Shown: in pieces, positions 20,714-25,708 of the stretch
Numbering within the stretch: the first letter of the stretch is position 1
How the letters are laid out: the number at the start of each line of letters is the position of its first letter
Assembly: GCA_964543655.1 (NCBI GenBank)
Contig: CAZIZE010000076.1
Location: forward strand, 1 to 36,365
DNA: 36,365 nt
Origin: an uncultured bacterium
GTDB taxonomy: Bacteria; DYJV01
Direction: 5' to 3'
Translations under genes and position numbers: made by a program
Notes under the pieces: generated by a model
Databases searched by the model: none
Told to the model about the DNA's origin: nothing
The model's input: the letters and a program-made list of their open reading frames with translations, nothing else

Positions 20714-21826
20714 ATGAAAAAATTATTTTTATCCACAATTTTTCTACTACTTTTTACTACATTTGCATTTTCTGAAATTAAAATCCCTGTTGTAAGCCCA
20801 TACACAGGTCCCCTTGCAACTTTTGGAGAAGGAGTTAAAAATGGGGCATTACTTGCTGCTGAAGATATTAACAAAGCAGGTGGAATTAATGGGGAAAAAG
20901 TAAAGATTTTACTTGAAGATGATATGTGTGACCCTAAAGAAGCAGCTAATGTTGCAACTAAAATTGCAGGTATGAAAGATGTTTATATTGTAGTAGGTCA
21001 TCTATGTTCTTCTGCAACTTTATCAGCTCTCCCTATTTACAAAAGAGCCCATCTTCCAGCTATTTCACCAGCATCTACAAATGTTACCATTGGTAGATTA
21101 AGTAAATATTATTTTAGAAATGTTTATAAAGATGATTTCCAGGGAAAATTTCTTGCAAGATATGCAGATGAAGCTCTCCATGCTAAGAAAGTGGTTATCT
21201 TTTATGAAAATAATGACTATTCAATAGGTTTAAAAGATGCTTTTATAAAAGAAGCTAAAAAAAGAGGATTAAAAATACTTGGTACAGAAGCATATACTCA
21301 GGATGACACAGATTTTAAACCTATTCTTACTAAATATAGAGCACTGAGACCAGATGTAATATTTATTCCAGGATATGCACCTCAGGGGACTCTCATTATT
21401 TCTCAGGCAAGAGAGCTTGGATTTAAGTGTAAATTTATGGGAGCAGATGGACTTGATGATAAAATTATGTTACAAAATCCTGATGCTGAAGGATTAATGA
21501 TAACAACACCTTTTATACCAGATAAGGCTGGTAAAGCTGCTCAAAAATTTATAAAAGAGTATAAAGCCAAATTTCATTCAGAGCCAAACTGGTTTGCTGC
21601 TAATTCTTATGATGCAGTGATGTTAGCTGCACAGGCAATTAAACATGCTGGTAAGAATAGAGAGAAAATTAGAGCATACCTTGCAAGTATAAATTCACCA
21701 GCAAAAGCATTTAAAGGTGTAACTGGTGCAACATATTTTGATAAATATGGTGATTGCCAGAAACCAGCATTTATAAAAGTAATTAAAAATGGCAAATGGG
21801 TAGGTGCAGAAATTCAGATTAAATAA
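20714..21826 (+). CDS. livK: Branched-chain amino acid ABC transporter substrate-binding protein
   Basis: Signal peptide; PYTGPLATFG, INKAGGING, DDMCDPKEA, VVGHLCSSAT, SYDA; GGGAGG RBS. Confidence 0.93.
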   Translation: MKKLFLSTIFLLLFTTFAFSEIKIPVVSPYTGPLATFGEGVKNGALLAAEDINKAGGINGEKVKILLEDDMCDPKEAANVATKIAGMKDVYIVVGHLCSSATLSALPIYKRAHLPAISPASTNVTIGRLSKYYFRNVYKDDFQGKFLARYADEALHAKKVVIFYENNDYSIGLKDAFIKEAKKRGLKILGTEAYTQDDTDFKPILTKYRALRPDVIFIPGYAPQGTLIISQARELGFKCKFMGADGLDDKIMLQNPDAEGLMITTPFIPDKAGKAAQKFIKEYKAKFHSEPNWFAANSYDAVMLAAQAIKHAGKNREKIRAYLASINSPAKAFKGVTGATYFDKYGDCQKPAFIKVIKNGKWVGAEIQIK

Positions 21827-21841
21827 ATTAGTAGGGATGAA

Positions 21842-22756
21842 ATGTTCTGGCAGCAGCTTGTTAACGGTCTTGTGCTTGGATGTGTTTATGCATTAATAGC
21901 AGTAGGCTATACACTTGTTTATGGCGTTATTGAGCTTATAAATTTTGCTCATGGCGAAATTTATATGCTCGGCGCCTTTTTTATGTACACATATTTAAAT
22001 GCAGGAATTTCTTTTTATTTTGCATTTGTTTTAGCTGTTATTTCATGTATTATTGTGGGAATTTTTCTTGATATAATAGCTTACAGACCTGTAAGGCACT
22101 CTGATAGGCTATCTGCATTAATAACAGCTATTGGTATGAGTATATTTTTTCAGAATCTTGCCCTTATAATATGGGGTGCTGATATAAAAAGATATTCAAG
22201 ACATTTTATTCCAGCATTTTTTAGAAAACTTGCAATTAACCTCCCAAACGATTCAATACCTATTTTCAAAAATGTTTTTTTAACTGTGTCCTATTTACAG
22301 GTAACAATAATTGTTTTATCAATTTTACTTATGATAATTTTGCATTTAATAATTAATAAAACAAAAATTGGTACAGCAATGAGAGCAATAGCGCAAGATA
22401 AACAGGCTGCGGCTCTAATGGGTATTGATGTTAATAGAGTTATATCTTTTACTTTTGCACTTGGCTCAGGGCTGGCTGCTGTTGCTGGAGTTTTAATAGG
22501 AATGTATTACAACAGCATTTACCCTACAATGGGTTATATTGCTGGAATCAAAGCTTTTGCTGCTGCTGTTCTTGGTGGAATAGGTTCAGTTCCTGGAGCA
22601 ATGCTTGGAGGAGTAGTTCTGGGGATGGCAGAAACTTTTGGAGCTGGATATATATCAAGTCAGTACAGGCATGGAATTGCATATGCAGCAATGATATTTG
22701 TCATTCTTTTTAATCCATCAGGTTTGCTTGGGAAAAAGCGGGTGGAGAAAGTTTAA
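21842..22756 (+). CDS. livH: Branched-chain amino acid ABC transporter permease LivH
   Basis: QQLVNGL..G..YALIAVGYTLVYG...INFAHG, GTAMRA, KAFAAAVLGGIGS. Confidence 0.96.
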   Translation: MFWQQLVNGLVLGCVYALIAVGYTLVYGVIELINFAHGEIYMLGAFFMYTYLNAGISFYFAFVLAVISCIIVGIFLDIIAYRPVRHSDRLSALITAIGMSIFFQNLALIIWGADIKRYSRHFIPAFFRKLAINLPNDSIPIFKNVFLTVSYLQVTIIVLSILLMIILHLIINKTKIGTAMRAIAQDKQAAALMGIDVNRVISFTFALGSGLAAVAGVLIGMYYNSIYPTMGYIAGIKAFAAAVLGGIGSVPGAMLGGVVLGMAETFGAGYISSQYRHGIAYAAMIFVILFNPSGLLGKKRVEKV

Positions 22757-22768
22757 GGAGAAATTTTT

Positions 22769-22936
22769 ATGGATTATAATAAAAAAGTTGCTGATCTAAC
22801 TGTTGGGGAGCTTATAGATATTATAGAGCAATCAGTTGCAACTGTGCTTTCTGAAATGATAGAAGCTGCTGCTGAAAATTTTGAAGAGGATGATTTTTTA
22901 ACTGATACAGGTGATAATAAAAAATTATTTTCATAA
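22769..22936 (+). CDS. 55-aa acidic small protein (below the ORF-track cutoff)
   Basis: AAGGAG (22755-22760) 8 nt before ATG; translates MDYNKKVADLTVGELIDIIEQSVATVLSEMIEAAAENFEEDDFLTDTGDNKKLFS; fills the livH-livM gap almost exactly. Confidence 0.8.
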   Translation: MDYNKKVADLTVGELIDIIEQSVATVLSEMIEAAAENFEEDDFLTDTGDNKKLFS

Positions 22937-22942
22937 ATTTCT

Positions 22943-23887
22943 TTGGAGAAAGGTTTGAAGTATAGAAAATACTTTATATTTGCAATTATTATAGCTCTGA
23001 TTTTACCATGGATACCTATTAACAGCGCCAACTATATAACAAGAGTTGCTACTCTGACGATTCTTTACATGGTGCTTGCTATGGGGTTAAATATTATTGT
23101 TGGTTTTGCTGGACTGCTTGATCTTGGTTATGTTGGTTTTTATGGTATTGGTGCCTATGTTGCTGGATTGCTATCTATTCATTATGGCCTGCCATTTTAT
23201 ATTTTATTACCTTTATCTCTGTGTGCAGGTGCAATTTCAGGAGTGGTTCTTGGTGCGCCCACTTTAAAACTCACAGGAGATTACTTTGCAATTGTTACTT
23301 TTGGTTTTGCAGAATTGGTAATACTTGTTGTTAGAAATGAAATATGGCTTACCCGAGGGCCTATGGGCATAGCAGGAATTCCTCCAATTACAATTTTTGG
23401 CCATACTTTTACAAAGGGATATGAATACTACTATTTGATGCTTGCTATTTTTTTAATAGTGTTTACTGTAATAAAAAGGCTTGAACATTCGAAAATAGGT
23501 AGAGCATGGTTTGCAATTAGAGAAGATGAAATTGCTGCAAGGTGTTGTGGAATTAATGTGGTTAGATACAAAGTACTTGCATTTGCAATTAGTGCATCAA
23601 TAGGTGCTGTTGGTGGATGCTTTTTTGCAAAGTGGTTTTCCTTTATACATCCAGATATGTTTAAATTTTGGGAATCTATTTTAATCCTATGCTTAATTGT
23701 ATTTGGTGGCATGGGGAATGTCTATGGAGTGCTTTTAGGGACCCTTGTTCTTATACCAATTACAGAGGTTTTGAGAAATGTGCTGCCACAGCAGCTTGTT
23801 GAGGCAAGGTATTTAATTTTTGGTGTTTTACTTGTGGTAATGATGAGATTTAGACCAAATGGCTTAATTCCATTTAGTAAGAGGTAG
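22943..23887 (+). CDS. livM: Branched-chain amino acid ABC transporter permease LivM
   Basis: [55 protein letters not shown]. Start may be TTG 22955 (GGAG upstream). Confidence 0.95.
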
Positions 23888-23889
23888 AT

Positions 23890-25002
23890 GTGCTTGAAGT
23901 AGTTAATTTAACAAAAGATTTTGGTGGTGTTAGAGCTGTATCAAATGTATCTTTCAAAGTTAACAAAGGTGAAATTGTCAGTATCATTGGTCCAAATGGT
24001 GCTGGTAAAACTACTCTTTTTAACCTGCTCACTGGATTAATCAAACCTACAAAAGGCTCTATTATTTTCGAAGGAAAAGAAATAATACCGGAAGATAAGC
24101 CTCAAGATATAAGGAAGTTAGAAATTTCTTCAATCTTAATAGGTATTTACTCAGTTGTTGTGATGTTGTATTTTTATTTAGTTTATTATAAACAGGCAAC
24201 TTTTCAGTTTGAATTTACTCTATTTGTAATATCTGTTGCAATTCTTAGAGTTTTTGCAACATACAGATTATTTCAGAGAGTTTTATGGGCAAGAGGTTTT
24301 CACTCTATAATGTTTTTTTTTGATACAGCTTTTGCTCTCTACTTTGCCTGCTCAGAGCATTTTATAATTCCTTTTATACTTATATTTGCATTTTCATTAT
24401 ATTTTTATCTTTATTTAATGAAGAAAAAAACAAGGTATCTTTTTGGGGAATTTCTTGAAGCAGAAAATATAGCTAAAATTGGAATTTCCAGAACATTTCA
24501 GAACATAAGATTATTTCAGAACTTAACAGTGCTTGAAAATATTTTAATAGGATTTCATTTACACACAAAATCGCACATTGGAAATATTTTATTAAAAACT
24601 AAATCACAGCAACATGAGGAAAAATTATTAGTAGAAAAGGCTAAAAAACTGCTTGATTATGTAGGCATTAGACAATCAGCAGATTTGCTTGCTTCAAACT
24701 TACCATATGGAGAGCAAAGAAAATTAGAAATAGCCCGAGCTCTTGCTGCAAAACCAAAACTATTACTCCTTGATGAGCCTGCTGCTGGAATGAATCCTAA
24801 AGAAACCAGAGAGTTACTACAGCTAATTGAAAAAATCAGAAAAAGTGGAATAACTGTTATTTTAATTGAGCATGACATGAAGTTGGTAATGAACATTTCT
24901 GACAGAATTATTGTACTTGACTATGGAAAAAAAATTGCAGAAGGACTCCCATCTGAAATAAAAAATAATAAAAGAGTAATTGAAGCTTACCTTGGTGGAT
25001 AA
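23890..25002 (+). CDS. livG: LivG-type ABC ATPase with an internal ~120-aa hydrophobic insertion
   Basis: Walker [18 protein letters not shown], signature LPYGEQR, Walker [19 protein letters not shown]-terminal VIEAYLG; 370 aa versus about 255 aa for typical LivG; GTG start after GAGG. Confidence 0.92.
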
Positions 25003-25003
25003 A

Positions 25004-25708
25004 ATGCTGCAAATAAAAGAGATTAGAACTTATTATGGAAAAATAGAAGCACTTAAAGGTATTAGCTTTGAAGTTAAAAAGGGTGAAATAGTTTCATTAA
25101 TTGGAGCTAATGGTGCAGGAAAAACAACAACTTTATTATCAATTAGTGGTATAATCAAGCCTAAATATGGTGAGATTATTTTTGACAATAAAAGAATAGA
25201 CCAGCTTTCACCTGATAAAATTGTTTTAATGGGAATTTCACAGGTTCCTGAAGGTAGAAGAGTTTTTCCTTTTCTAACTGTTAAAGAAAATCTGATGCTT
25301 GGAGCATATCTCAGAAAAGATAAAGAAGAAATTAATAATGATTTGCAACATATTTTTGAGTTGTTTCCTATTTTAAAAGAGAGGTTACATCAAGATGCTG
25401 GGACATTAAGTGGTGGAGAACAGCAAATGCTTGCAATAGGACGTGCATTAATGTCAAAACCATCTGTGTTACTTCTTGATGAACCATCACTTGGTTTAGC
25501 ACCAAAAATTGTAGAGCTTATCTTTGATATTATTCTTGAAATAAATAGAGAAGGTGGTACCATTCTGTTAGTTGAGCAAAATGCAAATATGGCTCTTAAA
25601 ATTTCTCACAGGGCTTATGTTCTTGAGACAGGTGAAATAAAGCTTGAAGGTAAAGCTGAAGAGCTTCTTGACAATGAAGATATTAAAAAAGCTTATCTTG
25701 GTGAATAA
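25004..25708 (+). CDS. livF: Branched-chain amino acid ABC transporter ATPase LivF
   Basis: GANGAGKTT, VPEGRRVF, LSGGEQQML, LDEPSLGLAP, VEQN, KAYLG; ATG 25004 right after the livG stop, preferred over TTG 24980. Confidence 0.96.
   Translation: MLQIKEIRTYYGKIEALKGISFEVKKGEIVSLIGANGAGKTTTLLSISGIIKPKYGEIIFDNKRIDQLSPDKIVLMGISQVPEGRRVFPFLTVKENLMLGAYLRKDKEEINNDLQHIFELFPILKERLHQDAGTLSGGEQQMLAIGRALMSKPSVLLLDEPSLGLAPKIVELIFDIILEINREGGTILLVEQNANMALKISHRAYVLETGEIKLEGKAEELLDNEDIKKAYLGE

Follow-up and report, generated by a model that had tools for sequence, protein, structure and literature searches.

A predicted four-helix membrane module nested in the LivG-type ATPase of a small HAAT importer subfamily from two phyla of mostly uncultured bacteria

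The ATPases of ABC importers are peripheral proteins, held at the membrane only via the coupling helices of their permeases, and LivG ATPases are normally contiguous, soluble proteins of ~255 aa. The livG gene on a contig of an uncultured bacterium (GTDB lineage Bacteria; DYJV01), analysed here over its 36,365 nucleotides (hereafter the window), encodes a longer protein of 370 aa with a hydrophobic segment of about 120 residues inside the ATPase domain. This locus raises the question of whether such an insert is real and, if so, whether it enters the membrane and what a LivG would do with membrane helices of its own.

The gene belongs to a complete ABC importer operon of the liv (branched-chain amino acid) type, livK-H-M-G-F, on the + strand of the window, at a locus with a GC content of ~30% and flanked by housekeeping genes (dnaX, yicC and gmk upstream; genes for a pseudouridine synthase, a HIT protein and an HflX-type GTPase downstream). 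The operon comprises livK (20714-21826), encoding a periplasmic binding protein of 370 aa (Pfam Peripla_BP_6, E 8.7e-62); livH (21842-22756) and livM (22943-23887), encoding permease subunits of 304 and 314 aa (Pfam BPD_transp_2, E 1.1e-46 and 2e-46); livG (23890-25002), encoding the ATPase with the nested, predicted membrane insert; and livF (25004-25708), encoding a second ATPase that has no insert and is matched by Pfam ABC_tran in a single stretch. Translation of livG begins at a GTG, with AAGAGG located 6-11 nt 5' of it. The livF open reading frame opens at a TTG at 24980, and the start in relatives, whose LivF is 234 aa long, is the Met corresponding to 25004. The 187-nt gap between livH and livM holds an acidic ORF of 55 aa (22769-22936, + strand) with no Pfam match; a 64%-identical counterpart lies at the equivalent position in genome G001, ORFs with a similar N-terminal motif occupy the gap in G003 (50 aa) and G002 (73 aa), and none is present in G004 or G005.

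Within the window's phylum, four of six genomes keep the livKHMGF order and two have livF unlinked. Orthologous livF genes (72-78% identity) lie apart from livKHMG in G002 (G002:C56:2584-3285) and G003 (G003:C14:14250-14954), where livG is followed by the gene for a DUF362/ferredoxin protein and by a 260-aa ORF, respectively. In G005, a pair of toxin-antitoxin type, DUF5615 (137 aa) and DUF433 (74 aa), separates livM from livG (L020 3026-3439 (-) and L014 2433-2657 (-)). Seven liv-type (HAAT) operons are found in the window's own genome (G000, 2.26 Mb), and the insert occurs in the window's operon only; those on contigs C8, C17, C30, C39, C83 and C99 encode ordinary LivGs.

By its motifs, fold, tail domain and operon, the window protein is a LivG-type ATPase. 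The best NCBIfam family for it is LivG itself (NF008449), at 294.9 bits, below the equivalog cut-off of 362 and with the match in two parts; the BCA_ABC_TP_C tail (PF12399) scores 41.3 bits over a cut-off of 25.5; the model of the protein has the fold of a solved LivG-type ATPase; and the operon supplies a Peripla_BP_6 binding protein, two BPD_transp_2 permeases and a second ATPase. What it lacks is a contiguous, soluble ATPase domain of ~255 aa, its own being interrupted by a 120-residue hydrophobic insert. Both Pfam ABC_tran and NF008449 match the protein twice, over roughly residues 1-71 and 190-369. A phmmer alignment to MJ1267 (1g6h) pairs query residues 2-69 with chain residues 8-75 and query residues 194-369 with chain residues 79-256, so that ~124 LivG residues stand where MJ1267 has three. 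In a MAFFT alignment with six insert-less LivGs, the insert spans residues 67-186 (24088-24447), ~120 residues between an ABC-beta strand and the helix preceding the Q-loop, in place of a three-residue loop. It divides the ATPase into an N-terminal piece (23890-24087, + strand; residues 1-66), with the aromatic F11, Walker A (34-42) and the ABC-beta strands, and a C-terminal piece (24448-24999, + strand; residues 187-370), with the pre-Q helix, Q204, the signature, Walker B, H328 and the BCA_ABC_TP_C tail.

An initial annotation, made from the sequence of the window alone, had placed the insert at 24088-24453 (residues 67-188), practically the same span, and its further statements on the gene hold as well. 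It had described the catalytic motifs as intact on either side, and in a 15-sequence alignment Walker A, Q204, the YGEQR signature (273-277), the Walker B residues D295-E296 and H328 are invariant, as are the ABC motifs across the 14 insert-bearing LivGs. It had seen no stop or frameshift, and translation gives one open frame of 370 aa. It had reported no intein signature; the insert indeed runs from Pro67 to Phe185-Gly186 and is followed by Glu, and no Pfam intein domain is present.

Nor did we detect a source for the insert elsewhere. No Pfam (intein domains included) or NCBIfam family matches it, no DNA repeats flank it or lie within it, no Rfam family falls at the insert or its borders, and no mobile-element traces were found at the insert. 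Internal duplication of a helical hairpin was rejected (BLASTP of residues 67-128 against 129-186, E 0.085 over 26 residues), as was descent from the permeases (hhalign probability <1% against both LivM and LivH). The insert also does not compensate for a shortened LivM; the window's LivM and its six paralogues in the genome align over an equal span. Other long LivGs were considered as carriers of analogous inserts and dismissed: P0014 (445 aa) and P0048 (382 aa) contain a partial internal duplication of the N-terminal half, which looks like an assembly or gene-call artefact in each, and the long open frames of G023 and G024 contain ordinary LivGs. The otherwise ordinary LivG of G028 (291 aa; L011 1486-2358 (-)) carries an unrelated, hydrophilic, Lys/Glu-rich insertion of ~35 residues at the identical loop, and the site can accordingly be said to tolerate insertions.

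Because the window was taken from a metagenome-assembled genome (102 contigs), the insert could in principle reflect misassembly, chimerism or decay of the gene, but such an origin is extremely improbable in view of what other assemblies contain. We examined six genomes of the window's phylum, all at species level (the window's and five others), and found the insert in all six, in exactly one copy each and with no indel; tblastn to the five other species gave gapless alignments over 369-370 residues. The insert is thus present in frame in independent assemblies of five other species of the phylum, as it is in six genomes of another. A contig from sequencing run X1, possibly the source of the window, covers 23600-25100, i.e., the whole gene. 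Run X2, which belongs to a separate study, yielded a 587-nt contig that covers 23717-24303 with four differences and therefore bridges the upstream junction independently; the downstream junction is bridged by none of the listed X2 pieces. Spanning of both junctions, suggested at the outset as a safeguard against misassembly, was obtained at the level of contigs, from a separate study for the upstream junction and from the X1 contig only for the downstream one. No RNA runs are among the sequencing runs listed for this sequence. With an unbroken frame and purifying selection also speaking against it, the artefact explanation is already refuted as far as sequence data allow.

Computational evidence consistently gives the insert the character of a membrane domain. 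In Kyte-Doolittle windows of 19 residues it peaks at residues 79-97 (2.11), 105-123 (1.78), 136-154 (1.32) and 158-176 (2.25), against a highest value of 1.03 in LivG outside the insert, and neither the rest of LivG nor LivF has comparable hydrophobic stretches. All four peaks lie within the range of the LivH and LivM membrane helices of the operon (1.05-2.85); for HAAT permeases in general, 9-11 spans are predicted according to passages of PMC3654945. The residues F, Y, W, I, L, V, M and A together make up 58-68% of the insert. The outer helices are strongly hydrophobic: predicted TM1 (24124-24186, residues 79-99, in to out) has no acidic residue and 0-2 K/R in 14 sequences, and predicted TM4 (24361-24420, residues 158-177) is free of charged residues in 14/14 and is followed by the basic KKKTR, the loop after it holding 2-4 K+R. 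The inner pair is marginal and charged, with rough insertion sums of +4.4 and +5.4 kcal/mol for TM2 and TM3 on a biological hydrophobicity scale. Predicted TM2 (24202-24264, residues 105-125) contains E108 near its outer end and R120 towards its inner end, and predicted TM3 (24298-24354, residues 137-155), the least hydrophobic helix, has D145 (codon gat, 24322-24324) at its middle. These two are joined by a predicted cytoplasmic loop (loop 2; 24265-24297, residues 126-136) that is basic and contains W133, with 3-4 K+R and no acidic residue in 13/14 sequences and one K+R in P0150. All these features lie on the + strand.

Taken together, the segment before TM1, the TM2-TM3 loop and the segment after TM4 carry 6-10 K+R, compared with 0-2 in the outer loops counted (14/14), and the additional outer loop of the longer forms described below contributes 0-2 more, as read from the alignment. 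The charge pattern thus obeys the positive-inside rule. The four hydrophobic helices of the initial annotation correspond to these hydropathy peaks and to the helices modelled by AlphaFold2, and its even number of spans, with both ends on the cytoplasmic side, fits the K/R-rich ends and middle loop. We infer from this character that the insert enters the membrane.

The modelled helices of the insert run from 71 to 102, 106 to 128, 132 to 156 and 159 to 177, with 10-residue means of pLDDT between 87 and 94 from residue 71 to 180. A four-helix bundle was obtained both in full-length LivG (mean pLDDT 88.7) and from the insert alone (84.8). The linkers are short: strand 63-66 leads into the helix from residue 71, and helix 159-184 is followed by a six-residue loop and the pre-Q helix (191-197). 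Around the insert the modelled ATPase domain keeps its canonical fold, the point for which an AlphaFold model had been proposed; against solved chains, the LivG model reaches Z 28.8 over 238 residues for 4wbs_A and Z 28.4 over 235 residues (rmsd 2.5 A) for 1g9x_A (MJ1267), and its ATPase domain superposes on LivG-type and LptB chains with TM-scores by target of 0.85-0.93. The structural comparison was aimed at chains with fused membrane and ATPase domains that align over both parts; the best 50 solved chains align with 214-239 of the 370 LivG residues, that is, with the ATPase domain.

A helical bundle could also be soluble or peripheral, lying on the cytoplasmic face without spanning the membrane. 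Soluble four-helix bundles do occur among the structural neighbours of the insert model, and the hydrophobicity of the charge-bearing TM2 and TM3 is marginal. Nonetheless, the hydropathy of TM1 and TM4 (2.11 and 2.25), the absence of any charge from TM4 in 14/14 sequences, the preponderance of hydrophobic and aromatic residues across the insert and charges that follow the positive-inside rule make a soluble bundle very unlikely.

Within the window's phylum the insert is strictly maintained in length. Nine clade members have 0 indel columns over the 120 insert residues and 25 invariant positions, eight of which are in TM3, and in 15/15 genome pairs pN (0.17-0.39) is lower than pS (0.54-0.82), the resulting ratios of ~0.15-0.6 being rough because dS is near saturation. 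The insert diverges faster than its host domain, with 59% identity within the phylum as compared with 76% for the ATPase domain (lower in 35/36 pairs). Orthologues of the other subunits were 74-88% (LivK) and 74-96% (LivH) identical to those of the window within the phylum, and 64-71% and 64-65% identical in a second phylum. Between the two groups of insert-bearing LivGs, the insert is 24.6% and the ATPase domain 56.4% identical, and P67, E108, R120, W133, D145 and G186 are the only insert positions invariant in 14/14 insert-bearing LivGs of the two phyla. A tree of the ATPase columns only unites the insert-bearing LivGs of the window's phylum in one clade (SH-aLRT 100).

A profile of the insert retrieved 2 clusters from 1.84 billion representative proteins and 5 loci from species genomes. 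That the insert is confined to one phylum was overturned by a search with the C-terminal ATPase part, which returned further close members of 370-378 aa and four LivGs of 395-414 aa (P0146, P0147, P0166 and P0150) in which a distantly homologous insert occupies the same position, its outer TM3-TM4 loop extended by 14-16 residues. The library-wide profile search had missed these distant forms because they reach only 10.8-27.6 bits with the close-clade insert profile, and the DNA patterns used were likewise specific to the close clade. Applied to 238 proteins, a core-insert profile gave 145-181 bits for 18 close members, 10.8-27.6 for the four distant ones and 3.6 for the next best.

P0147 is encoded in G127, a genome of the second phylum. 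In a sample of 401 genomes, only G127 and the window's phylum, with all six of its genomes, gave matches at E <= 1e-80, and within the second phylum an insert-bearing LivG is found in 6/16 genomes (4/10 among good-quality genomes), the other 10/16 having no match at that threshold. The operon was examined for orthology in three genomes of the second phylum (G127, G401 and G402) and is orthologous as a whole, with LivM 63-64%, LivF 63-66% and LivG 44-48% identical; the GC content of the six loci of that phylum is 50-56%. At L044, G403 (a single 2.8-Mb contig), a long-form livG and livF are present with no livM directly upstream; a single-contig genome of this kind is possibly the easiest experimental entry point. 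Based on these distributions, the insert-bearing LivGs define a HAAT importer subfamily that is small and spans two phyla, most of whose bacteria are uncultured, and in which the insert is conserved, under purifying selection, hydrophobic and helical, with catalytic motifs intact and in one conserved operon type.

We consider it somewhat more probable than its opposite that this LivG is an integral membrane ATPase with a built-in accessory membrane module beside the LivHM permease, and the "self-anchored ABC ATPase" proposed in the initial annotation is the most economical reading of the data. The chain would leave the catalytic domain after its first 66 residues, which contain Walker A and the ABC-beta strands, cross the membrane four times as an up-down bundle (the insert, 24088-24447, + strand) that leaves its two ends and its central loop on the cytoplasmic side, and re-enter the ATPase domain just ahead of the helix that leads into the Q-loop, with the ATPase fold closing round the excursion. 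Since the chain exits after strand 63-66 and returns six residues before the pre-Q helix, the insertion point should lie at the cytoplasmic end of the bundle. The bundle would serve as an accessory transmembrane module of the LivHM translocator that keeps LivG at the membrane at all times, alongside the permease subunit it works with. That subunit is probably LivM: fusions of LivM with LivG are found, in which LivH stays a protein of its own, and by analogy we infer docking of LivG on LivM. Any contact with either permease subunit, like any role beyond anchoring, is putative. A complex prediction of LivH, LivM and the insert (residues 62-195) returned an ipSAE of 0.00 in two runs with no controls alongside and is counted neither for nor against such contact.

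The functional core of the module would be formed by E108, R120, W133 and D145, which might build a buried polar network holding together the weakly hydrophobic TM2-TM3 hairpin, or else make contacts with the permease. The three invariant charges in predicted membrane helices argue for a specific role, and their conservation suggests more than an anchor. Describing the insert as an anchor or accessory may therefore miss its real role, because an anchor alone needs no invariant intramembrane charges. Such a role could be an internal salt-bridge network, contact with charges of LivM or LivH, or sensing. Several charged residues of the permeases are invariant as well (LivH E31, D77, R89 and R276; LivM D113, R131, E133, H236, K241, E244 and R302), being the same in nine orthologues of both phyla and in none of the six G000 paralogues, with several located in hydrophobic stretches. 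These are candidate partners of E108, R120 and D145.

Two other explanations assign the insert either less or more than this. It might be a plain tether, or a passenger tolerated in a permissive surface loop, that makes no specific contact with the permease. The loop accepts other insertions, as in G028, the insert evolves faster than the ATPase domain, six paralogous operons of the genome do with ordinary LivGs, and the distribution in the second phylum is patchy (6/16); indeed, a general need for the insert is counted against because the six other liv operons have ordinary LivGs and 10/16 genomes of the second phylum are without a match. A passenger would hardly be expected, however, to keep 120 residues free of indels across a phylum, to show pN below pS in every one of the 15 pairs or to retain six residues, including three charges within predicted membrane helices, when insert identity between phyla is down to 25%, and no trace of a repeat, duplication or mobile element was left at the site. 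We therefore regard a mere tether or passenger as distinctly unlikely.

At the other extreme, the bundle might be a regulatory sensor in which D145, E108 and R120 detect membrane potential or pH, or else an ion or lipid, and in turn control ATP hydrolysis via the pre-Q helix and the Q-loop. The six invariant positions include three charges placed in predicted membrane helices and the Trp of the basic cytoplasmic loop; the insert joins the domain directly before the Q-loop helix; and TM3, which contains D145, holds 8 of the 25 positions invariant within the phylum. While these features would suit a sensor, no ligand- or ion-binding family matches the insert, its fold is that of a generic four-helix bundle (best Z 10.5) and buried salt bridges are also common for structural reasons, so that we hold a sensor to be unlikely. 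A broader form, in which the bundle is a membrane-embedded control of the motor whose charges would be sensitive to potential, protons, an ion or a lipid, or would interact with the subfamily-specific charges of LivM or LivH, and thereby set ATP hydrolysis through the Q-loop helix, appears equally doubtful. The accessory module beside the permease is thus the reading that we carry forward.

Checked on its own, as had been proposed at the outset, the insert is explained by no Pfam, NCBIfam, PDB-profile or fold match. The best E in a profile search against solved structures (PDB) was 0.43, Foldseek on the insert model returned no match at E <= 0.001, and VIA gave a best Z of 10.5, which is below a meaningful level for helical bundles, to generic bundles. 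Feature scores in the ESM Atlas were 0.77-0.78, below a useful level, with small unnamed four-helix proteins as neighbours. The Atlas also contains three LivG-type clusters whose representatives are 370, 344 and 450 aa long (with 107, 75 and 69 members, most often from Chloroflexota and Planctomycetota). Their structural alignments extend over 290-308 residues, beyond the ATPase domain by itself, and these clusters may hold analogous inserts. The initial annotation had allowed that the architecture might already be a described family; a search of the full-text literature found no description of it and no account of membrane helices nested in a LivG ATPase. The nested insert is thus undescribed in Pfam, NCBIfam, solved structures and the searched literature, the host protein being of the known LivG type.

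In the window LivG, the catalytic domain must fold from two pieces that flank four predicted membrane spans, which raises questions about biogenesis, about how tightly motor and translocator need to be joined and about control of a motor from within the membrane. The signature of E, R, W and D is conserved in two phyla and therefore offers clear mutants to test. A structure of the complex would be doubly informative because no HAAT permease here, neither LivM nor LivH, matched any solved chain by sequence. If the insert were a control element, it would suggest that ABC transporters with integral-membrane ATPase subunits form a class that has gone unnoticed.

Among known systems, canonical HAAT ATPases of the LivG/MJ1267 type (1g6h, 1gaj and 1g9x; NF008449; TC 3.A.1.4) share the fold, motifs, BCA_ABC_TP_C tail and livKHMGF setting of the window protein, but have a three-residue loop before the Q-loop helix where the window LivG has 120 hydrophobic residues. 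The regulatory insertion in NBD1 of CFTR is short, soluble and flexible, does not span the membrane and lies between the first strands of the domain, a different site from that of the LivG insert. Both are additional segments within an ABC nucleotide-binding domain, and a regulatory function has been proposed for the one in CFTR (abstract of PMC3776845). The closest parallel to a membrane-tied LivG is direct fusion to the permease: G037 encodes a LivM-LivG fusion of 623 aa (L033 1100-2971 (+)) with a separate livH upstream, and P0012 is named by its source as a [quoted passage not shown]. PF02653 and an ABC domain occur together in many database proteins of 614-967 aa, and many others of ~490-545 aa resemble LivG-LivF fusions in length. 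The existence of the G037 fusion makes a covalent membrane linkage between LivG and LivM a natural solution, and in such fusions, as in the window LivG, the ATPase is covalently joined to transporter membrane helices. However, the fusions join a whole permease end-to-end with an uninterrupted ATPase, whereas the window LivG holds a small module inside its ATPase and leaves livM as a separate gene.
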